Assembly: GCA_951406725.2 (NCBI GenBank)
Contig: OX597829.1
Location: 20,708,001-20,772,000 of the forward strand
Length of the DNA: 64,000 bases
DNA from: Octopus vulgaris
Lineage: Eukaryota
Direction: 5' to 3'
Positions within the stretch are counted from its first letter, which is position 1. Each line of letters starts with the position of its first letter. Position numbers and translations under genes: made by a program. Shown in pieces: positions 7,119 to 56,385 of this stretch. The notes under the pieces are model-generated. The model made no database searches and had not been told where the DNA came from. It worked only from the letters and a program-made list of their open reading frames with translations.

Positions 7119-7807
7119 TACGGATGGTGCTTTTATGTGTCACCGGCATGGGGGCCAGGCGAGGCTGGCAACGGACACGAACGGATGGTGCTTTTACGTG
7201 TGCCACCGACACGGGGGCCAGACAGAGCTGGCAAACTGCCACGAACGGATGGTGCTTTTACGTGTCACTGGCATGGGGGCCAGGCGAGGCTGGCAACGCG
7301 AACGGATGGACGCACGGCAAGCTGGATGGTGCTTTTACGTGTCACTGGCATGGGGGCCAGGCGAGGCTGGCAATGGACACGAACGGATGGTGGCCACCCG
7401 AGAGCTGGCAAACTGCCACGAACGGATGGTGCTTTTACGTGTCACCGGCATGGGGGCCAGGCGAGGCTGGCAAAGGACACAAATGGATGGTGCTTTTATG
7501 TGCCACCGAACGGGGGCCAGACAGAGCTGGCAAACTGCCACGAACGGATGGTGCTTTTACGTGTCACTGGCACGGGGGCCAGGCGAGGCTGGCAATGGAC
7601 ACGAACGGATGGTGCTTTTACGTGCCACCGACACGTGGGCCAGACAAAGCTGGCAAACGGCCACGAACGGATGGTGCTTTTACGTGCCACCGACACGGGG
7701 GCCAGACAGAGCTGGCAATCGGCCACGAACGGATGGTGCTTTTACGTGTCACCGGCACGGGGGCCACGCGAGGCTGGCAATGGACACGAACGGATGTTGC
7801 TTTTATG
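7119..7807 (+). repeat. GC-rich ~58-bp minisatellite (about 12 units, two alternating variants) inside an interspersed repeat
   Basis: Recurrent ACGGATGGTGCTTTTACGTG... unit; about 1.5 units in the related repeat at 46840-46930. Confidence 0.9.
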
Positions 7808-7836: not shown

Positions 7837-8069
7837 ATGTGCATGAGGGAACTTCCTTATGCCTTTCCAGAAGGTTCCAGAAGGTTCCAACCCCGCACAC
7901 ACACACTGAAGAAGGACGTTGCGCACACGCACACTGAAGAATGACGTTGCGTGTGCGCACACTGGAACATGACGTCACTACAAAGGTGACGTTCCGCACA
8001 CGCACACTGAAGAATGACATTGCGTGTGCGCACACTGGAACATGACATCACTACATACCCTTAAATAAG
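7837..8069 (-). repeat. Inverted copy of 8804-9036
   Basis: Reverse-complement match including 14 nt of flank outside the putative LTR. Confidence 0.85.
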
Positions 8070-8817: not shown

Positions 8818-9506
8818 TGTAGTGACGTCATATTCCAGTGTGTGCACACGCAACGTCATTCTTCAGTGTGCATGTGTGGAATGTCACCTTTGTAGTGACG
8901 TCATGTTCCAGTGTGCGCACACGCAACGTCATTCTTCAGTGTACCTGTGCGGAACGTCCTTCTTCAGTGTGCGTGTGCGGGGTTGGAACCTTCTGGAACC
9001 TTCTAGAAAGGCATAAGGAAGTTCCCTCATGCACATGCGCTAGAGACTGAAGAATAAATTCCATAGCGTTCCTTAATAGCATCGGGGACTTGAGACACGG
9101 CGATAGAAGAGAAAGGACGTATATTTTGAAACCTGTGATCAGCCTATTCTCCTGTCCCAGACGCTTAGGATTTAACCTGTTCTACTGCTGCTGAATTGTT
9201 GTAAAGCTTACAAACGTTTGAATTCAGCCTTGTTGCGTTGAACTAGGTGGATATCAGCATACCATCGTGTTTCATTGTTGAACCAAAGAAAATAAAGAAT
9301 TATATATATTTTTAAACTTGCGTTTCGTTCCTGACTGGTAGTTTCTATAAACAAAAAGAAAGGAAATTGTGTTGCACCCAAGTTGCACCCCAAAAGTGTA
9401 AAGAAGCAACCAGTTCCCTTTACAGGTATAATCATATCTGTTGATCAGATTAACTGAAACACTTGTAGCAGATGGAGTGTCAGTTTTGTTGAATTCTTGA
9501 ACCTTA
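8818..9506 (+). mobile_element. Probable solo LTR inserted in a SINE
   Basis: Begins TGTAGTG, flanked by GGGTA direct repeats (8813-8817, 9507-9511), internal tandem subrepeats and AATAAA; 3' end reads TA rather than CA. Confidence 0.55.
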
Positions 9507-18060: not shown

Positions 18061-18098
<38 letters not shown>

Positions 18099-18145
18099 TG
18101 AAATAGAAAGATGAATAATCTTGTTGCAGATTAATCAAAAGTTTC

Positions 18146-18225
18146 TTCCTGAAGAGAAAGACACAATATGGTCTCCTTATTCAATCGGAATTTGGTAAAT
18201 TGTGCCTTTCGAAACACATGTAGAA
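18146..18225 (+). ncRNA. Minimal type I hammerhead motif in a ~190-bp (TA)n-flanked element
   Basis: UUC-CUGAAGA-GAAAGACACAAU...AUUGUGCCUUUC-GAAAC ACAU GUA-GAA. Confidence 0.7.
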
Positions 18226-18279
18226 TGCAATAAAACGATTTCTGTTCAATCTTCGTTCAACTCCATTTCTTCAATTCAC

Positions 18280-18333
<54 letters not shown>

Positions 18334-24882: not shown

Positions 24883-25189
24883 TATTGTTATATTTCGGAA
24901 TGGTCATTTTGCTAGTTTAGCCAATAAAAACACACGCACTATATATTTGGTGTTATTTTGCTTCAGTGATATTTATTTTTTACTTTAATCTTAATCTTAT
25001 TTCGGTCAGAGTTCTTTCGTCACACTCCTGTGACCGCATCACAGGAGTGTGACGAAAGAACTCTGGCCAAAATAAGATTAAGATTAATGTAAAAAATAAA
25101 TAACACTGAAGCAAAGTAACACCAAATATATAGTGCGTGTGTTTTTATTGGCTAAACTGGCAAAATTTGCATTCCGAAATATAACAATA
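24883..25189. repeat. Near-perfect palindrome, ~150-bp arms; same family forms a second palindrome at 35494-35738
   Basis: Arms fold back at about 25036. Confidence 0.9.
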
Positions 25190-25689: not shown

Positions 25690-25803
25690 ACATAAATGAC
25701 TGCTTGCAAAATCCATGTCGTAACCATGGGACTTGCATTGATGGAGTACAATCTTACCGGTGTGTTTGTGCACCGGGATGGGAAGGTAGTAGCTGTAGCC
25801 GCA
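25690..25803 (+). CDS. JAG1: Jagged exon, EGF11 ([37 protein letters not shown])
   Basis: 114 nt, ttcAG/GTgagt. Confidence 0.95.
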
Positions 25804-27110
25804 GTGAGTAACACTTTTTTTTTATGATTTATTATTTATTATTTTTATATTATTTTTGGCTGGCAGAATCATTAGCATGCTGGGCAAAATGCTCAGTGGA
25901 ATTTCATCCATCTTTACATTCTGAGTTCAAATTCTGCCGAGGTCAATTTTACCATACATCCATCATTTTGGGGTTGATAAAATAAGAACCACTTAAACAC
26001 TGGAGTTGAACAAAATTTCAGGCCTTGTGCCTTTAATAGAAAGAATTATTTTTTAGAATAAAAAAGATTGGATTATCAGATAAATTAGTTACTTTTTTTT
26101 TTTGTCCCATTTATCTTAATCCTTTCTTTCCAATGTTATTTGAATTAACACGAAAAATATTTTTATTGTTTTTTGTTTTTGTGGAGCTCTATTCTTCTAC
26201 AACTTTTGGATAAAGTTTTACTTCTTTTCAAACTGAAGTACCAAATAGAAAGAAAGAAAGCAAATTTATCTGATAACTCAATAATTATAAAAATAATACA
26301 ATTTTATAGACTAATCATAAAAATTAAGAATATAAATTCATTATGTAAATCTAAATTTTAATAATTTGGATAAAACAAATTAAAACATTTGTAATAATGG
26401 CTGCCGTGTAACATCTAAAGTGTTGTTCTGCAGTTTAGAGGTTACGCTTAACCATGCAAACCCCTTCCAGTTTGAAAGAAGCTTTTCTGTGGTGTAAGAA
26501 TCATATTTCTCTTTCAAGCCGATAAGGGAGTCACTACATGCTACAAAAGTAGCATCCAAATTTCCTCAGATAACACATTACCATCTGAGAAAAAGGAAGG
26601 ATAAGAAAAATTTCCAATTAAATCATCTGTCCAGCCATCTGTTTTCTTCACCCACTATTACTGGATGGGTCATGGAAGTAGAGTCCTCAAGTACCTCTTT
26701 CTTCATAGGGTCCTATGAGAAGCAACCATCATTAGACTCTCCAGCTGGATTCCCAAATGTGACTGATTGAGATTATGGACATTATCCAACCATCTCTTTC
26801 TTGTTCTACCCCACAAATCAGAGAAATAGTTGCTCAAACTGTAGATACTTGTAGACCTCTGAGTTATATGCACCTTGTCAAGTAACATTATTCCAAAATT
26901 TTAAAGATATATATATATATATATACTAAGCAATAAAGGGTTTGGCAACGAATTGCCTTACCACATACCGAATTTAGAAATAGCAGTCAAAGAGTTATAG
27001 CTATTTCTTCTACTAAAAGGGAGATCTCAGTAAAAACAGCAATTGGAAGGCAGACACAAACAGGTAAGAGGGAATGAATTGACGGCAATCTATCATACAA
27101 TTTTAAGTTA

Positions 27111-27211
27111 TCTACGGACGTACGTTTCGAAATCAAGTTTTTAGGAAAGCATAAGAATTAAATATTAAATAATTCTATCTTACCAAGAACTTCTTCTCTC
27201 TTCAGCGTAGA
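27111..27211 (-). ncRNA. Type I hammerhead ribozyme (inverted monomer)
   Basis: Near-exact reverse complement of the motif at 27933-28033. Confidence 0.8.
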
Positions 27212-27932
27212 ATACTATAATCATAAATGATTATATATTGAATTTTGAGATACTAGAAGGCATCAACTCAACTCAGTATCAGAGCGAGCTAGAATCCGCA
27301 ACTAGTATCACCAAATTCAATGTGTGAATGAAGAGATTGTGTCACCAGCCCCTTCCCACCCGCGTGTAGCCAAAACAAGATGCTGTGGTCATCTACTGAG
27401 ATAAAATATGGTTATCCGTAATAATGAAGGGTGAAATTAATTAATTTGGAATAATTATCAATAACACCAAGTAGTCTTCGGCATGTAAAAGCCTGTCTGC
27501 CTTCCAATTGCTGTTTTTACTGAGATCTCCCTTTTTAGTAGAAGAAATAGCTATAACTCTTTGACTGCTATTTCTAAATTCGGTATGTGGTAAGGCAATT
27601 CGTTGCCAAACACTTTATTGCTTAGTATTACTTAAATTTTCCTCGAATGAGGCTTTTACATGCCGAAGACTACTTGGTGTTATTGATAATTATTCCAAAT
27701 TAATTAATTTCACCCTTCATTATTACGGATAACCGTATTTTATCTCAGTAGATGACCACAGCATCTTGTTTTGGCTACACGCGGGTGGGAAGGGGCTGGT
27801 GACACAATCTCTTCATTCACACATTGAATTTGGTGATACTAGTTGCGGATTCTAGCTCGCTCTGATACTGAGTTGAGTTGATGCCTTCTAGTATCTCAAA
27901 ATTCAATATATAATCATTTATGATTATAGTAT

Positions 27933-28033
27933 TCTACGCTGAAGAGAAAAGAAGTTCTTGGTAAGATAGAATTATTTAATATTTAATTCTTATGCTTTCC
28001 TAAAAACTTGATTTCGAAACGTACGTCCGTAGA
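27933..28033 (+). ncRNA. Type I hammerhead ribozyme, intact core
   Basis: UCUACG-CUGAAGA-GAAA...(~70 nt helix II)...UUUC-GAAAC GUAC GUC-CGUAGA: 6-bp helix I, palindromic GUAC loop III, GUC cleavage triplet. Confidence 0.85.
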
Positions 28034-28526
28034 TAACTTAAAATTGTATGATAGATTGCCGTCAATTCATTCCCTCTTACCTGTTTGTGTCTGCCTTCCA
28101 ATTGCTGTTTTTACTGAGATCTCCCTTTTTAGTAGAAGAAATAGCTATAACTCTTTGACTGCTATTTCTAAATTCGGTATGTGGTAAGGCAATTCGTTGC
28201 CAAACCCTTTATTGCTTAGTATTACTTAAATTTTCCTCGAATGAGGCTTTTACATGCCGAAGACTACTTGGTGTTATTGATAATTATTCCAAATTAATTA
28301 ATTTCACCCTTCATTATTACGGATAACCATATTTTATCTCAGTAGATGACCACAGCATCTTGTTTTGGCTACACGCGGGTGGGAAGGGGCTGGTGACACA
28401 ATCTCTCCATTCACACATTGAATTTGGTGATACTAGTTGCGGATTCTAGCTCGCTCTGATACTGAGTTGAGTTGATGCCTTCTAGTATCTCAAAATTCAA
28501 TATATAATCATTTATGATTATAGTAT

Positions 28527-28627
28527 TCTACGCTGAAGAGAAAAGAAGTTCTTGGTAAGATAGAATTATTTAATATTTAATTCTTATGCTTTCCTAAAAA
28601 CTTGATTTCGAAACGTACGTCCGTAGA
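28527..28627 (+). ncRNA. Type I hammerhead ribozyme, second direct copy
   Basis: Same motif 594 bp downstream. Confidence 0.85.
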
Positions 28628-28911
28628 TAACTTAAAATTGTATGATAGATTGCCGTCAATTCATTCCCTCTTACCTGTTTGTGTCTGCCTTCCAATTGCT
28701 GTTTTTACTGAGATCTCCTTTTTAGTAGAAGAAATAGCTATAACTCTTTGACTGCTATTTCTAAATTCGGTATGTGGTAAGGCAATTCGTTGCCAAACCC
28801 TTTATTGCTTAGTATTACTTAAATTTTCCTCGAATGAGGCTTTTACATGCCGAAGACTACTTGGTGTTATTGATAATTATTCCAAATTAATTAATTTCAC
28901 CCTTCATTATT

Positions 28912-28967
<56 letters not shown>

Positions 28968-29042
28968 TATTTATATATTTTTGTCTTGAGATATTTATTA
29001 TAATATATTTATATATATGTTTTTGTCTTGAAATATTTCCAG

Positions 29043-29154
29043 ACACCAATGATTGTAGTCCAAATCCTTGCCAAAATCATGGCATCTGCACTGACAGAAT
29101 AAACGGTTTCTGCTGTGTGTCCCAAAGGATGGAAAGGGAAAACATGCAATTCAA
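29043..29154 (+). CDS. JAG1: Jagged exon, EGF12 (TNDCSPNPCQNHGICTDRINGF...PKGWKGKTCNS); 2 nt short
   Basis: tccAG/GTaaga; 112 nt instead of 114, frame breaks in the tgtgtgt run at about 29111-29120. Confidence 0.88.
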
Positions 29155-30738: not shown

Positions 30739-31045
30739 GTAATTAAGCAAATTGACATGACTGCAGTTTTTTTACTAATTCGTTGCATTACTGTAAAAAA
30801 AAAAAGTCAGAACATTTCACTCAAGAAGAAATACTTACACACACATATGCAGAAGTATATATACATACACATTTTTTTTTGTGTGTTTATGTATATATAT
30901 ATATATATATATTAGAAGAAATAAGGTACTCAGAAATGTGGATGGTTTTACATGTAAATGTAAAACCATCCAGATTTCTGAGTACCTTATTTCTTCTAAT
31001 ATATAATGCCTTTATATCACCTCCAAACCTTCTTATATATATATA

Positions 31046-35440: not shown

Positions 35441-35745
35441 GTTTAAATATTTGTTGTGCAAGATTTTTTATGTGAAGTCGTGTGTTGAAACAGATATTGT
35501 TGTATTTAGGAATGGTCATTTTGCCAGTTTAGCCAATAAAAACACACGCACTATATATTTGGTGTTACTTTGCTTCAGTCTTATTTATTTTTTACATTAA
35601 TTTTAATCTTATTTCGGCCATAAGATTAAGATTAATGTAAAAAATAAATAACACTGAAGCAAAGTAACACCAAATATATAGTGCGTGTGTTTTTATTGGC
35701 TAAACTGGCAAAATTACCATTCCTAAATACAACAATATATATATA

Positions 35746-36807: not shown

Positions 36808-37137
36808 GGTAAGCTTTATGAAAATAGACAAAAGACGAAGGCAGGTTTACGGAAATAAACAAAAGACGAAGGCAGGTGGAATACAGACAAACAATTGTAT
36901 TAGTATGGCGCTCAGGAAATATAAATGAAACAAGTCTTTAACGTTCCGAGCCTACGCTCTTCAACAGAAAGATACACAGAGAAAAAAACACAGAAAGAAG
37001 GAGAGAAAAAATATGCGTGCAAAAGCTAGCGAATCAACATGGCGATCTGATTTCGGCCAGAAATCAAAGATCAAACATGAGACGCAAGAGCGAAATTAGG
37101 GGAGATAATAGGGTTGAATGACACCCCGCTGAAACAT

Positions 37138-37169
<32 letters not shown>

Positions 37170-39250
37170 AGAGTGTGTGTGTGTGTACGAGAGAGTATTA
37201 GTGCGTATGAGAGGTCTAGACATGTGTATGTATATATGATGTGATGTGTAAAGTCGTATGGTATAGTGTAGAGAGAGGAGAAGAAGGGGGTAAGGGGGGA
37301 GGGGGGAGAAGGAAAGAGGAGAAGAGGGGGGAGGGGGAGAAGGAAGGAGGGAGGATAGAGGGAGAGGGGGAGCAGAGGGAAGGGGAAGAGGGAAGAAGGA
37401 GGGAGGGAGAAAGAGGGAAGAAGGGAAGAGAAGTAGGGGTGAAAGGATGAAGGACTGAAGAGAAGTAGGGGTCGGGGGGAGGTTAGATGAGGAGGGGGAG
37501 GGGGTTAGATGAGGAGGGGGGCGAGTTGAGACCAAATGGCATATAAGAGCGAAGAGAGAAGATTAATTCCTGTTCACGGCGCAAACGGGAATCCGGATGG
37601 CCTCTGTGTAAGGACAAACCGAACACAGACAGGTGTTGCAAGGAGTGACCGGTGGAGTGGAAATGGCGTGAGACTGGTGTGTCGTTCGCAAGGTGGATGT
37701 CACGAAGGTGTTCCGCGAACCGGTCAGCCAAGCGGCGTCCCGTTTGTCCAATGTACAGGGAATGGCAGAGAGAGCAAGAGACGCAATAGATAATATTGCT
37801 GGAGGTGCAAGTGAAGGAGTTGATGATGCGAAAGGGTCGATGATGGGTGCCAGTGAGGAGGGTGGTGTTGGAGAGGTACGGGCAAGTGCGGCAACGTGGG
37901 CGGGAGCAGGGGAACGAGCCAGGTTGGGAGGTAGGGTCAGGGAAGGAGCTATGGACCAAAAGGTCTCGAAGGTTATGGGCTCGTTTGAAAGAGGGGAGGG
38001 GTCGGTTAGGGAAGAGGTGTGAAGTGGACGGGTCGAACTGGAGATGACGGAAAGCTCGAAGAATGGTGCGTTGGAGAGGTAGGGTCGTGGGGTGGTAAGT
38101 GAGGGGAAAAGGGAGGCGGGAGACTACAGGGCGGGTTCGGGGAGAGAGAGCAGATACACGGTCCACGGAACGTGCTCTGACAAGGGTGGTGTGGATAGTG
38201 GTGAGGGGGTATCCACGTAGGATGAAGTGGTGAGCCATACGTTGAGACTGAGTCTCAAAGTCATGGTCGTCACTACAGAGCCTACGTAGACGGAGGAATT
38301 GGGAATAGGGGATGGAAAGCTTGGTGTGTTCTGGGTGGGAGGAAGAGAAGTTGAGGTAAGAGTGTGAGTCTGTGTGTTTGTAGTGAATGGAGGTGGTAAG
38401 AGTGGAGTGAAAAATGCTAACCGAAATGTCGAGGAAGGAGACAGAGGTGTAGGAGATAGTGGAAGTGAAGTGGAGGGCTGGATGGAAAGATTGAACAAAA
38501 GAGAGGAAGGAATCTAGATGTTCACTGGAGAGTGAGGTGGCACCGATAATGTCGTCAATGTAACGACCATATAGTTCAGGAGTGGGACCAGTGAAATTAG
38601 AGAATATTTGGGCCTCAACATAGCCAACGAACAGGTTCGCATAGTTGGGGCCCATTCGCGTTCCCATGGCCACTTCCGAGACCTGATGGTAGAACTCGCC
38701 CGTGAACGAGAAGCAGTTAAGAGTAAGGACAAGTTCGGCCAGACGAATGAGTGTGGAGGTGTCAGGTTCAGGGTTGGAGCGGAGGTGAAGAAAGTGTTGA
38801 AGTGCCTGCAGTCCTTCGTGGTGAGGGATAACGGTATAGAGGCTCTGAATGTCCATAGTAAAAAGGATTTTGGAGGAGCCGGGAGGAAAGGAGAAAGAGT
38901 TGAAAAGCCAGAGAGCATGGTTGGTATCGTGGATGTGGGAGGGAAGAGATGCCACTAGGGGGCAAGGACACGGTCGAGGTATTTAGAGATGAGCTCCGTG
39001 GGGCAGTTACAGGCGGAGACGATGGGGTGGCCAGGGTTGTTGGGTTTGTGGATTTTGGGGAGGAAGTAAATGGTGGGGGTACGTGGGGTTCGCACAATTA
39101 GGTTGGATGCGGTGTGGGGGAGACGGGAGGACGAGATGAGGTCGCGGACAGTAGAGGATACCGTCTGTTGGTAGCTACGTGTGGGGTTAGAGGACAGAGG
39201 GGAGTAGAAGGAGGTGTCATTGAGTTGGCGGAAAGCCTCGGCCCTGTAGA
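36808..39250 (-). mobile_element. Penelope-like element, 5'-truncated (RT + GIY-YIG endonuclease) with 3' pLTR-like tail
   Basis: ORFs 38955-39257 and 37483-38955: YFLPKIHK, MDIQSLY, AMGTRMGP, YGRYIDD, NIIYCVSC...LYIGQTGR. Variant hammerhead-like motif at 36935-36972. Lies between TA/TG microsatellites. Confidence 0.92.
37483..38955 (-). pseudogene. Penelope-like RT/GIY-YIG ORF remnant
   Basis: 490-aa ORF; disrupted from the upstream frame near 38955. Confidence 0.85.
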
Positions 39251-39266
39251 GATGCATGTGTATCTC

Positions 39267-39318
<52 letters not shown>

Positions 39319-39326
39319 TATGTATC

Positions 39327-39361
<35 letters not shown>

Positions 39362-39439
39362 TTACAGGAATGTAAAAACGGTGCTGTATATAAAAAACAT
39401 TTTAGAGTAACATAATAACTCATATTTTTGAAATTGCAG

Positions 39440-44627: not shown

Positions 44628-46640
44628 ATTCCCTCTCCACACACACAAATGCAAATAGAATCTCCGCAGAGGAGAAAAACAAGCCTTACAAAAACTGAAA
44701 AATGATAAGTCAATCATTATAAAAGAAGCTGACAAAGGTGGAGCAATAGTAATTATGGATACAGATTACTACAAAGAAAAGATACTGGAGTTACTGAACA
44801 ACCAGACATACTATAAAGAGGAACCAACACCACCGGAGAAAGCAACAATAAAAAAAATTAGAACTTTAGTCAATTAATACCAGAACTCCTTTACAGATAA
44901 GTAGAAAGAGTGTCTATGCAACTCAAGAACCAAAGAAAGCAATTTTTATGGATTACCTAAAATTCATAAAAGCTCTGAAATACAGAGAGCCATAAAGGAA
45001 CAGAGGAACCACTATATAAGAATACAAAGGCCTGCAGACCTCACAATGAGACCAATAGTGGCAGGACTCCAGGCACCAACACAACAACTAAGCCACTTCA
45101 TAGATATACTCCTCAAACCTTTATGCCCACAGATACCAAGCTACATAAGGGATGACATAGACTTCCTCACACACAATCCAAATACAGTCCCGAAAAACAC
45201 CATACTTGCAAGCTTTGATGTCACAAATCTATGCACAAACATACCACACACCCTAGGTCTAGAAGCAATAAAACAATCGATAGAAAAATACAGAGAACTT
45301 ATAGACGAACGCTTTAAGACAAACTTTATCACCCAAGCCACCCAATTAATACTCGAAGAAAATACATTCTCATTCAACAACAAGACATACCGACAGATAA
45401 AAGGCACGGCTATGGGTACAAAATTCGCACCTTCATATGCCAACCTGGTGATGGGTTTCCTGGAGAACAAACTATACGATGAAATAGGGAAAGTCTTCAA
45501 ACACGACTTCAGAGAAGACATCAAGAAAAAGTGGAAACGCTACCTCGATGACTGCTTCATCTTTTGGAACAGATCAGAGGAAGACCTACGAACATTCCAC
45601 AACATCCTCAATACGCTGCACCCATCTATCAACTTCACAATAGATACCAGCCACAACGAACTTCCCTTCCTAGACATCAACATCAAAATACACAACTCCA
45701 TCGTCACAACAGACACCCACTACAAAAAAACTGACACACACCAATATTTAAATTTCCACTCATGCCACCCATCCCACACAAAAAGAAACATCCCATATAG
45801 TATGGCAAGACGAATATGTAGCATAGTAACTGATTCACAAATACGATTAATAAGACTAGATGAACTCAAAAACTTCGTCCTAGAGCAAAAATACCCCCTT
45901 AAACTAATAGAAAATGGAATCACAAGAGCATTAAAACTAGACATCGCACATCTCAGGACACCCAAAACAAAAATCAAAGAAAACATTATCCCTTTTATAA
46001 ACACGCACAACCCTGGAGTTACCAACATCTTCCAAACCATACATTCAAACCTACCAATAGCCTTACAAAGCCCCAAAATGAAAAACATATTAAACAAATA
46101 TAGCATAAAAAACAGTAGACGACAGGACAAAAACCTAAAGAAACACCTAACAAGAGCGAAATTCTCTTCAGAAAGTAAAACGGAATTCTTTGCAAAAGAG
46201 TGCGGAGATGGTAGATGTGGGATCTGCAGCAACCCCACCAACAAATACATAGAGGGAAACAGAGAGATGAGATTTAAAAGTGGTTACGTATTCAAAGTAA
46301 ATGCAGATATGAACTGCAAGACGCAGAACGTTATATACTGCATAACCTGCCCCGCGTGCAAGGAGAATTCTTTGTGCCAGCGAGCCAGGATTCACCGACA
46401 ACATATTCGGCTGGAAGAACTACGCAAAATACCACTAAGTACACACCTAGCTACGTGTGGAGAAGGAAAATTTAAGATCTTTCCCTTCTACAAATGTCCG
46501 AAGAACGACACCTCTTTCAGGAGGAATATGGAAAAATATTTCATAGCTAAGTTCTCCCCCAAATTAAATGGCTGAAATTTTACTCGTCATACATTGAAGG
46601 ACAAATCTTTCGATTTACAATATAATATAGTAGAACATTT
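44628..46640 (+). mobile_element. Second Penelope-like element (RT; GIY-YIG damaged)
   Basis: Upstream IIIKEADKGGAIVIMD and FYGLPKIHK with stops. ORF 45046-46575 has FDVTNL, GTAMG, WKRYLDD, LPFLD and NVIYCITC, but no YIG. Confidence 0.9.
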
Positions 46641-48365: not shown

Positions 48366-49338
48366 GATGAGTGTATTTTTACCTTGTTAACAATTAACAC
48401 GGAAAAAATAAATAAATAGTTACCAGGGCAGCAAAAATCTCACAAGTAAAGGTGTTGTAACTCCTTGTTTATAAAGGTAGAAACTTCGTGTTTACGTTGA
48501 ATATTTTGAATAATATGAATTTAAAAAATGGAGTTAACGCAGGCGTAATCAAATATTTTTACTTCGACACATGTTTCGAAAATTCCACTGATACTATTTA
48601 AAAGAATAAATGGTATAAACAATGCAATCTTCTCAGGAAAGTGAAAAAATCGGAACTCGTCAATAAGACATTTTAGCAAAAAATGATGGATTTGTATAGC
48701 GATAGACAGAACGCTATTAATATTGTTTAAAAAAACGTTATATGATATAACGTCATAAGTAGCTAACAGAAACAGTAGGGATATTAATAGTGAATGTTAA
48801 ATATAATGGAAATTAAAGTTTAAATTATATATAATGATAGAGACTACTTATATGCACTAAATGTATGTTTTTGTCAATGCTTACATCTGTATGCTCGCTC
48901 TATAACCGTGTTTACTAGAGTATTTTTAGAAAAAATAATGAAAAATAGCTCAGAATTGCAGAGAAGACATAATTTCTTGCCTTTGTCATATGGTATCGAA
49001 ATTGAGAGAATCAACCATTCTAAATGAAATTGTTCATTGTGGTCTTTTAAATCTCAAATCAGTTTGCTGAGACCGGTACTATTCCGTTTATTTCAGCAAA
49101 CTGATTTGGGATTTAAAAGACCACAATGAACAATTTCATTTAGAATGGTTAATTCTCTCAATTTCGATACCATATGACAAAGGCAAGAAATTCTGTCTTC
49201 TCTGCAATTCTGAGCTATTTTTCATTATTTTTTCTAAAAATACCCTAGTAAACACGGTTATAGAGCGAGCATACAGATGTAAGCATTGGCAAAAACATAC
49301 ATTTACAGCATATAAGTAGTCTCTATCATTATATATAA

Positions 49339-51816
49339 CTAGCAGTATCGCCCGGCGTTGCTCGGGTTTGTAAGGGAAATAACTATATAAGCATTTTTAG
49401 AGAGTTATAGCCAAAAAATAGCAAAAAAATGCATTAAAAATGGAATAAAAAATTATGGTAATTTTTTTTAAATCATTGACTCATCGTAGACATTTTTAGA
49501 GAGTTACTTCCCTTATTTAATAGCGAAAAAATGCATTAAAATGGAAAAAAATTATGGTAATATTTTTTTAAAATCGTAGACTCATCGTAGACGCGCGCTA
49601 ATACCCAGAAGGGCTCGATATGAATCACGACTATAAGATACCCGGTTTTGGTTAAACTGCACCGTTAAATGTGGGAGTAGTTAGGAATCTAAATCGTAGG
49701 AGACAGACACACAACCTTACTTTTATATATAAAGATTTGTGCAACAACTAAAACATTCGGTTGTGCAAATTGTTTGCACAGGAAACCTGCCCTGTGTGGC
49801 GGTTTTTTGCCGTTTTTGTGGATCTGTTTCAGCTTTTTTAGCGATTTCTGTTTTGGCGACTTCAAGCCATGAAGTCGTTGTTCTAAAAGAACGCTGGTCT
49901 CCTTGACAACGCTTTACGACGTTGATTTCCCTACCCTGCCTTCCCCACAGCTTCACAAAGGAGGGAAGAAGGGGAGGAGCTACACAGTTGCAGGTGCGAG
50001 CATGAACGCCAACGCCGCCACCGACACACGAAAAAATTGGAAGAACCCAGACGACAGCTTCAGCCACCACCACCACCACCAACACAATCACCACTACCAC
50101 CATGAGCACCACCACCACTACGCCCATGACCATCACCACCACCATCACGAAGACCACCACGACCACCACCATCATCACCACGACCCCCACCATCACCCCC
50201 ACCACCACCACCACCACAACAACAACAACAACAACAACACCACCACCACAAACACGACGACCACCACGACCACGACCACCATCACCACTACCAGCACCAC
50301 CGCCACAACTGCTGCCACTACCACCGCCTCCACCACCACCATACTATGCCTCTGCTCTCTCCTTTTGGCTACTAAATCCATTACCATATTTCACAAGTAC
50401 CATCGCCATACAATATTGCCTTCAAAAGTTTGTGTTTGGATAATATTTTTTAAGTAAAAGTTGTGCAACAACTAAAACATTCGGTTGTGCAAATTATTTG
50501 CATGGGAAACCTTCCCTGTGTGGCGTGTTTCCCGATTTTGTAGAATTTGCTTTCGGGCTTTCTTAGCCATTTCTGTTTTGGTGTCTTCAAGCCATGAAGT
50601 CGTTGTTCTAAAAGAACGCTGGTCTCCTTGACAACGCTTTACGATGTTGATTTCCTTACACTCCCTTCCCCACAGCCTTTAAAAAATATGCGTTAAAATG
50701 GAAAAAAATTATGGTAAATTATTTTTAAAATCGTAGACTCATCGTAGACGCGCGCTAATACCCAGACGGGCTCGATATGAATCACGACTATAAGATACCC
50801 GAATTTGGTGAAACTGGACCGCAAAATGTGGGAGTAGTTAGGAATCAAAATCGTAGGAGACAGACACTCACACAACTTCACTTTTATATATATAGACTAG
50901 CAGTATCGCCCGGCGTTGCTCGGGTTTGTAAGGGAAATAACTATATAAGCATTTTTAGAGAGTTATAGCAAAAAAATGCATTAAAAATGGAATAAAAAAT
51001 GATGGTAAATTTTTTTTAAAATCGTTGACTCATCGTAGACATTTTTAGAGAGTAACTTCTCTTATATAATAGCGAAAAAATGCATTAAAATGGAAAAAAT
51101 GATGGTAAATTTTTTTAAAATCGTAGACTCATCGTAGACGCGCGCTAATACCCAGAAGGGCTCAATATGAATCACGATTATAAGATACCCGGTTTTGGTT
51201 ACACTGCACCGCAAAATGTGGGAGTAGTTAGGAATCTAAATCGTAGGAGACAGACACACAACTTGACTTTTATATATAAAGATTTGTGCAACAACTAAAA
51301 CATTCGGTTGTGCAAATTGTTTGCACAGGAAACCTGCCTTGTGTGGCGTGTTTCCCGATTTTGTAGAATTTGCTTTCGGGCTTTCTTAGCCATTTCTGTT
51401 TTGGTGTTTTCAAGCCATGAAGTCGTTGTTCTAAAAGAACGCTGGTCTCCTTGACAACGCTTTACGACGTTGATTTCCTTACACTCCCTTCCCCACAGCT
51501 TCACGAGGGAGGGAAGAAAGGGGAGAAGCAACACAGGTGCAGGTGCGAGCATGGACGCCAATTCCGCCGCCATCGACACACGAAAAAATTGGAAGAACCC
51601 AAAAAATATGCTTTAAAATGGAAAAAAAATATGGTAAATTATTTTTAAAATCGTAGACTCATCGTAGACGCGCGCTATTACCCAGAAAGGCTCGATATGA
51701 ATCACGACTATAAGATACCCGGTTTTGGTTAAACTGCACCGCAAAATGTGGGAGTAGTTAGGAATCTAAATCGTAGGAGACAGACACTCACACAACTTCA
51801 CTTTTATATATATACA
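49339..51816 (-). mobile_element. Non-autonomous Helitron, two head-to-tail copies (50897-51816, 49339-50896)
   Basis: Minus strand: 5' TC(TA)nAAAAG (outermost copy reads TG), 3' hairpin CCCGAGCAACGCCGGG followed by CTAG. Direct CTAG|TC junction at 50897/50896. Inserted between A and T with no TSD. Confidence 0.85.
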
Positions 51817-51998
51817 TTTAAACTTTAATTTCCATTATATTTAACATTCACTATTAATATCCCTACTGTTTCTGTTAGCTACTTATGACGTTATATCATA
51901 TAACGTTTTTTTAAACAATATTAATAGCGTTCTGTCTATTGCTATACAAATCCATCATTTTTTGCTAAAATGTCTTATTGACGAGTTCCGATTTTTTC

Positions 51999-52084
51999 AC
52001 TTTCCTGAGGAGAAGATTGCATTGTTTATACCATTTATTCTTTTAAATAGTATCAGTGGAATTTTCGAAACATGTGTCGAAAGT
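51999..52084 (+). ncRNA. Type I hammerhead ribozyme, intact core (damaged inverted copy at 48561-48642)
   Basis: ACUUUC-CUGAGGA-GAAGAUU...AAUUUUC-GAAAC AUGU GUC-GAAAGU. Confidence 0.8.
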
Positions 52085-52159
52085 AAAAATATTTAATTAC
52101 ACCTGCGTTAACTCCATTTTTTTAATTCATATATATATATAAATATTTTATTTTATTTT

Positions 52160-55860: not shown

Positions 55861-56111
55861 AATATATATATATATATATACATAATAGAAATATTAAAAT
55901 TACTAACTCTCTCTAAAGGAGATTATGGCAGCGTTACTGGATATTAATAGTTATCGCCATACTAATATGGCAGTCTATAAATAAGACTAAAGCTGTCGCT
56001 GATTAGCTGCAAGAGGCCATCGCCTCTAGCTAGCTATATGACACACGAACCTGCGTCCATTACAACCTTCGAACAGGAGAGGTCAACCGCTTCACCTTGC
56101 TAGTCAGACAT

Positions 56112-56152
56112 CTGCAGACATGTTTCAGGGTTGTTGCCCTTTATCAATGCAG
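56112..56152 (-). ncRNA. Mutated minimal hammerhead motif in the loop of a palindromic element (55947-56346)
   Basis: CUGCA-UUGAUAA-AGGG CAACAA CCCU-GAAAC AU GUC-UGCAG; two core substitutions. Confidence 0.5.
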
Positions 56153-56385
56153 CGTAGTCAGAACCAGCAGGTGTCGCTACTGACCGTCTGTTCGAAGATT
56201 TTTTTACTGACCTCCCCTGCTCGAAGGTTGTAATGGACGCAGGTTCGTGTGTCATATTGCTAGCTAGAGGCGATGGCCTCTTGGAGCTAATCAGCGACAG
56301 CTTTAGTCTTATTTATAGACTGCCATATTAGTATGGCGATAACTATATATATACATATATATATATATATACATATATATATATT

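Follow-up and report, generated by a model that had tools for sequence, protein, structure and literature searches.

A young, partly inverted array of hammerhead-bearing units in a Jagged-type intron of Octopus vulgaris, probably a non-autonomous Penelope-like retrozyme integrated as a multimer

What kind of element leaves more than two tandem copies of a ribozyme-bearing unit in an intron, with one further copy turned around in front of them, and could such a locus still release its units as RNA? The question arises from a 64,000-nt stretch of Octopus vulgaris DNA (the window; all positions are counted from its first letter), in which an intron of about 25804–29042 holds such an array. EGF-coding exons on the plus strand flank it on both sides, at 25690–25803 and 29043–29154, and belong to a gene of the Jagged/Serrate type. 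An exon of this gene near 14.2 kb matches the Pfam models EGF_DL_JAG and JAG1-like_EGF2, as well as solved Jagged, Delta-like and Serrate chains, among which Jagged ranks first. The large number of EGF exons, together with a cysteine-rich exon at 41.5 kb for which the ESM Atlas returned no match, presumably points to Jagged/Serrate and not to Delta. The location inside a Jagged intron, as originally predicted, is thus borne out by the flanking exons together with these model and structure matches, and the direct part of the array is sense to the host pre-mRNA. The downstream EGF exon (112 nt) is 2 nt shorter than the previous one (114 nt), and its frame seems to shift by 2 nt within a TG run, which is probably an assembly indel.

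The repeat anatomy is the firmest part of the answer. The direct array (27494–28918, plus strand) covers 1425 nt with a period of 594, i.e., about 2.4 copies of a non-coding unit of 35% GC, with 99.5% identity between copies. In front of it lies an inverted slice of 572 nt (26923–27494, minus strand) that is 99.5% identical to the direct unit and has its 3′ end outward. If the unit is numbered from the predicted ribozyme cut site, the direct array starts at unit position 61, passes two cut sites and stops at 298, and the inverted slice goes from 217 round to 195, leaving out 21 nt (25 if the shared junction bases are omitted, which accounts for the figure of about 25 given earlier). The two parts meet head to head at 27494, where a single T is common to both and 155 nt separate the arms. 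Runs of (AT)n border the whole element at 26907–26925 and 28916–28963, and the final three nucleotides of the left run and the initial three of the right one also fit the element. All components of the original description (a 594-bp monomer, 2.4 direct copies, an inverted permuted copy and (TA)n borders) are therefore present. The copies differ at six places, each private to a single copy and none common to two: four substitutions (27196, 27612, 27735 and 28407) and two single-base indels (27019 and 28716) in one C/T run. The rest of the window, including two Penelope-like element (PLE) reading frames described below, has no unit-like sequence (best E 0.06), so that this is the one locus of the unit within the 64 kb. 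Since the array ends at different unit positions and matching terminal inverted repeats are absent, a MITE or other TIR transposon was rejected.

Three complete type I hammerhead motifs are found in the array. Two identical ones lie on the plus strand (27933–28033, motif 27939–28027, predicted to be cut after 28027; and 28527–28627, motif 28533–28621, predicted to be cut after 28621), and the third in the inverted copy on the minus strand (27111–27211, motif 27205–27117, predicted cut after 27117), where one A-to-G change leaves helix II paired as G-U. Each combines a 6-bp helix I, CUGAAGA, GAAA, a helix III of one pair closed by a palindromic tetraloop (C-GUAC-G) and a GUC cut site; the core (CUGANGA, GAAA and NUH, with helices I to III and helix I open) is that of a type I hammerhead, and the motif scan agrees with the earlier claim that every full monomer carries one. 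A strict scan of the whole window gave four motifs, against a mean of 0.005 in 200 shuffled windows (one of the 200 had one), and none of 5000 shuffled monomers contained any. The eight bases spanning helix III are fully self-complementary. The structured spacing between CUGAAGA and GAAA is 70 nt, so helix II is long, and such an arm offers no short loop 2 for the usual loop–loop contact. Searches with Rfam models, up to E 10, placed neither a hammerhead nor any other credible family on the array, a miss that is likely due to the 70-nt arm.

The claim that these are 'minimal' hammerheads did not survive. In the available text of PMC4209133 the minimal PLE hammerheads (min-HHR) have no helix III or loop 3, a helix I of 4–5 bp and an unpaired base before helix II, whereas the array motifs retain a helix III pair with its tetraloop, have a 6-bp helix I and a 70-nt helix II arm, and show no extra base before helix II. 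The core-only descriptor given in PMC8557442, as far as its available text goes, allows 7–17 nt, or 35–50 nt for 'half cores'. A closer likeness is the hammerhead of newt and axolotl satellite 2 (HHR_Amex1), which has the same one-pair helix III with a palindromic tetraloop and for which a dimer is likewise predicted to be necessary; it differs in that the array motif has an extended helix II and no evident canonical contact between loops 1 and 2. Repeat hammerheads of the dimer type are described in PMC7761336 and PMC3088659, whose available text does not mention a long helix II, and no hammerhead with an 'extended stem II' was found among the literature matches listed.

Would such motifs act as dimers? 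Unconstrained folding of 27495–28918 gives a double hammerhead, in which the swapped helices I (P 0.94–0.96) and the helix III formed between copies (P 0.95–0.96) are predicted at both 20 and 37 °C, although the program has no model of the catalytic core and the advantage over two separate hammerheads amounts to only about 4 kcal/mol. Two adjacent units of the direct array would accordingly be cut at 28027 and 28621, as had been foreseen, at least at the level of predicted folding. The monomer lying between the cuts (28028–28621) folds as a circle with a minimum free energy of −157 kcal/mol, a stability reached by none of 40 shuffled sequences and more marked in the sense (z −6.95) than in the antisense orientation (z −4.67). 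In this well-folded predicted circle of 594 nt the released RNA would keep its ends together; helices I and II are formed (P 0.94–0.96) and helix III is open (P 0.01–0.04), so that it may be expected to resist re-cutting. This is the arrangement that lets dimer-only hammerheads cleave multimers while leaving circles intact (PMC4209133).

The inverted copy changes this prediction for the locus as it stands. In the whole-locus fold it forms a 572-bp duplex with one unit, and the probability of the dimer drops to 0; in a fold of the nascent RNA, the first ribozyme has 100 of its 101 positions paired to the inverted copy, and a constraint to the dimer carries a penalty of about 153 kcal/mol. With one unit predicted to be sequestered in this way in the pre-mRNA, double cutting of the Jagged transcript is unlikely, and the locus therefore probably frees no monomer from it. 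Read-through transcription, on either strand, is accordingly predicted to give no monomer, and only a transcript starting inside the array could do so. On this point the original prediction, in which a transcript would be cut into exact monomers, has to be restricted to the direct array.

As for a coding origin, the element has no open reading frame above 66 amino acids. A set of 120 PLE proteins (those listed out of 745 matches, all of one PLE clade) gave a best tblastn E of 0.22 against the array and a profile E of 1.5, whilst two control stretches of real PLE reading frame gave E 1e-11 to 1e-32 in the same test, and Pfam searches of six read-through frames returned weak matches only, none at cut-off. 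The unit thus seems non-coding by all three approaches, as claimed, and a coding, autonomous PLE was rejected, there being no RT or GIY-YIG reading frame in the element. So was a tRNA-derived SINE, since ARAGORN found no tRNA gene and the unit has no tRNA-like head, A or B box, or octamer.

PLE coding sequence is nevertheless close by. In O. vulgaris, 31 PLE families have been active recently according to the available text of PMC13282606, and two broken PLE-type RT/GIY-YIG reading frames lie near TA runs in introns of the window (37486–39401, minus strand; 44630–46575, plus strand). Behind the first lies a short, decayed hammerhead, near 36970–36935 (minus strand). The named relatives of a window PLE are mostly bivalve among the matches listed. 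Among six coding relatives of the PLE at 45 kb, none showed a long core that would make it a partner: four have short cores of 11–16 nt and two too little 3′ flank, these cores being called by eye (the scanner flagged one of the six). These six relatives are animal-type PLE proteins encoded on contigs that were assigned to three bacterial genome bins, and the four cores, which are hammerhead-like, come after the reading frame; such contigs are likely host DNA.

What, then, is the element? On sequence criteria it is an animal non-LTR retrozyme, and it would work like one, RNA expression being a part of the original definition of these elements. In common with those of PMC7229834, as far as its available text describes them, and of a recent preprint (bioRxiv 10.64898/2026.07.22.740005), it has at least two non-coding units in tandem, a complete type I hammerhead in each, GC below 50%, no tRNA gene, and a predicted monomer circle that is highly self-paired and leaves the ribozyme free to form; the preprint's requirement of complete motifs in two units in succession holds for it. 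The unit had been thought unusually long, but the lengths reported in the preprint run from 51 to 972 bp, with a mean of 650 bp in ray-finned fish; it is longer than the circles of invertebrate retrozymes, at 170–400 nt. Other differences are the 70-nt arm in place of a helix II of 4 bp with a short loop, the lack of an Rfam match, the added inverted 5′ copy, and the fact that the array is known here from DNA alone. We found no report of an octopus or cephalopod retrozyme in a mostly open literature, where the supplements of PMC7229834, PMC13282606 and the 2026 preprint may list such elements.

Retrozymes have been proposed to be non-autonomous PLEs (bioRxiv 2026.07.22.740005), and the way in which the array sits in its target agrees with this. 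PLE insertions typically show partial tandems, an adjacent inverted and 5′-truncated copy, and microsatellite targets (PMC8557442, available text), and here we see a partial tandem, an inverted 5′-truncated copy and a (TA)n target. Both outer ends are 3′ ends in the sense of the ribozyme and each overlaps its target run by 3 nt; a 3-nt match of this kind is possible at 35 of the 594 unit positions, which gives about 0.0035 for both ends. The array shares with GIY-YIG PLEs and their pseudo-LTRs (PMC8557442 and PMC4209133 in their available text, and PMC11167929) also the internal start points and the type I hammerhead. It differs from them in having no RT or endonuclease remnant and a hammerhead that is not minimal, and in that its ends lie about 100 nt apart (unit 195 versus 298), as opposed to the 30–40-nt tail of PLEs. 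Another useful comparison is with the non-autonomous Chlamys PLEs such as MRC1, which are likewise non-coding, multicopy and head to tail, and made by a PLE in trans. These are green algal, most are without canonical hammerheads and their 3′ end resembles that of a partner (all as described in the available text of PMC8557442), whereas no partner of the array was found among the coding PLE relatives examined. Taken together, repeat anatomy, motifs, PLE-type ends and the lack of a coding remnant uphold the retrozyme, or non-autonomous Penelope-like, reading, and the array is probably a recent insertion of a non-LTR retrozyme (a non-autonomous PLE) that entered the genome as a multimer in a single step.

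The following sequence of steps could bring this about. A PLE RT/GIY-YIG protein acting in trans would nick both strands of an (AT)n run; the right nick would prime at about unit position 296–298 and copy 2.4 units, the left one would prime at about 193–195 and copy 0.96 unit, and the two cDNAs would be joined head to head at 27494. Purified PLE protein does cleave AT-rich DNA on both strands and extend them, with synthesis beginning at internal sites of the RNA (PMC11167929). Between the two inferred cDNAs there is an overlap of 135 nt, or else a gap of 459 nt, which is not a neat twin-priming join, and no literature on PLE twin priming with inverted copies was found. Fold-back self-priming of a single cDNA is conceivable as well; against it stand the one shared junction base and the absence of variants common to the inverted copy and the unit next to it.

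The template could be either a ligated circle copied round and round or a multimeric transcript left uncut. By simple arithmetic, one linear template would need about 1.86 kb with three uncut sites, and a 594-nt circle copied round needs none; reverse transcription of circles to more than unit length has been proposed in PMC4209133 and PMC7229834, as their available text has it. On the other hand, in the lizard PLE uncut RNA is the main insertion substrate, with priming sites that are not homologous to the target (PMC11167929), and only one of nine frog retrozyme dimers cleaved in vitro (bioRxiv 2026.07.22.740005), so that we regard the circle and the uncut multimer as about equally probable. 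The permuted copy had earlier been read as a sign of a circular template, which it is not by itself, since an ordinary PLE insertion explains it.

The strongest competitor, although an unlikely one, is that the array represents the 5′-truncated 3′ end of a coding PLE with several hammerhead repeats in its untranslated tail, the unit never moving alone. The same insertion marks would be expected of it, hammerhead cores do follow the reading frame in coding PLE relatives, and solo long-helix-II fragments of 200–340 nt, the size of PLE terminal repeats, occur in the window at 18.1, 48.5 and 51.8 kb. It would, however, have to explain a template of about 1.86 kb, or three units, without any coding remnant, when the visible cores of the relatives all lie within about 300 nt of the end of the reading frame.

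An origin in DNA seems less probable still. Here a single unit would have been inserted first, and tandem and inversion would have arisen later by unequal crossover and fold-back repair, as is proposed for retrozyme arrays in the preprint (bioRxiv 2026.07.22.740005), which prefers local amplification after insertion; near-identical copies would equally fit a recent duplication. What makes it improbable is that the inverted copy ends in the target run with a 3-nt match of its own, at a different unit position, that none of the differences is common to two copies, and that PLE insertion regularly yields inverted 5′ copies (PMC8557442, available text). Finally, an assembly artefact (a fold-back read or a mis-resolved repeat) is a very improbable source of the inversion or the copy number. 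The short neighbouring exon (112 nt vs 114 nt in the EGF exon before it) does suggest residual indel errors; against an artefact, private substitutions mark each copy, both flanks resume unique and collinear intron sequence, a second (TA)n-bounded inverted hammerhead element exists at 55938–56355, and the unit is present in many independent studies.

The integration of a multimer in one event, which we favor, would have to be recent. The four substitutions in 1997 nt (0.2%) translate into about 0.6 million years (0.15–1.4) at the octopus rate implied in the available text of PMC13282606, a figure that RT or assembly errors would lower further and behind which gene conversion would hide a greater age. 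The earlier impression of a young locus thus agrees with the low level of private substitutions. The unit also occurs outside this assembly: of 54 sampled words of it, 61–83% are present in 20 of the 24 sequencing runs listed. The runs with the unit come from 11 studies (10 without that of the best-matching run, a possible source) under four organism labels; among the runs listed none is firmly labelled as RNA and nine have a guessed 'RNA?' label.

The long helix II arm is not confined to the array. The fourth strict motif of the window (52005–52078) lies in unrelated sequence and has the same build with a 55-nt helix II arm; all six helix I pairs of the array motif are kept in it, four of them by changes on both sides. 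It belongs to a 340-nt TA-flanked element with two 96% identical copies (51807–52147, plus strand; 48500–48833, minus strand), the latter with its core broken by a 3-nt deletion. A third family is seen at 18085–18290 (plus strand), where a decayed long-arm core at 18149 lies between (TA)n runs; the 3′ tail of this element is 72% like that of the one at 52 kb. Given its occurrence in all three families, the long arm is a trait of an element lineage in this genome. The solo motif at 52 kb gives no hammerhead fold when folded alone, which is expected of a dimer-only motif and is not counted as support, and MAFFT produced no structure-based alignment of the four window hammerheads. The long-arm core pattern matched 32 loci in metagenome contigs, none with any helix I pair and hence attributable to chance, and no locus in viral contigs. 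Three unrelated, Rfam-invisible families within 64 kb suggest that ribozyme surveys undercount long-arm elements.

The window holds other repeats too. The element at 55938–56355 is adjacent to (TA)n, and its two inverted arms of 148 bp (95%) enclose a short hammerhead with a U3-A8 core variant (56147–56117, minus strand). Near-perfect palindromic repeats lie beside TA runs at 24883–25189, 35482–35738 and 30906–31005, the first two related at 93–97%. About 11 copies of a 62-bp unit at 7120–7805 are followed by inverted repeats of 73-bp period (7915–8055 and 8818–8958), and nested, partly inverted copies of a repeat family of roughly 210–440 nt occupy 49300–49800 and 50456–51814.

The kind of element described here, an animal retrozyme, is already known, and the variant is the long helix II arm. 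A bolder combination, in which a dimer-only class of hammerheads with 55–70-nt arms that standard searches overlook, a 594-nt circle copied more than twice from two TA primers (array and inverted head thus arising in a single step) and an inverted head that silences the array in the pre-mRNA all hold together, is tentative and on balance doubtful. The origin of retrozyme arrays is debated between reverse transcription of circles (PMC7229834 and PMC4209133, in their available text) and local amplification (the 2026 preprint), and an array as young and as little mutated as this one, with a PLE-type end at either side, could decide it. If the bolder combination is true, the locus would show directly, in genomic sequence, that retrozyme arrays form in the course of integration and not by later crossover, and the silencing of the array's ribozymes by its inverted head would be what lets such insertions persist in introns.
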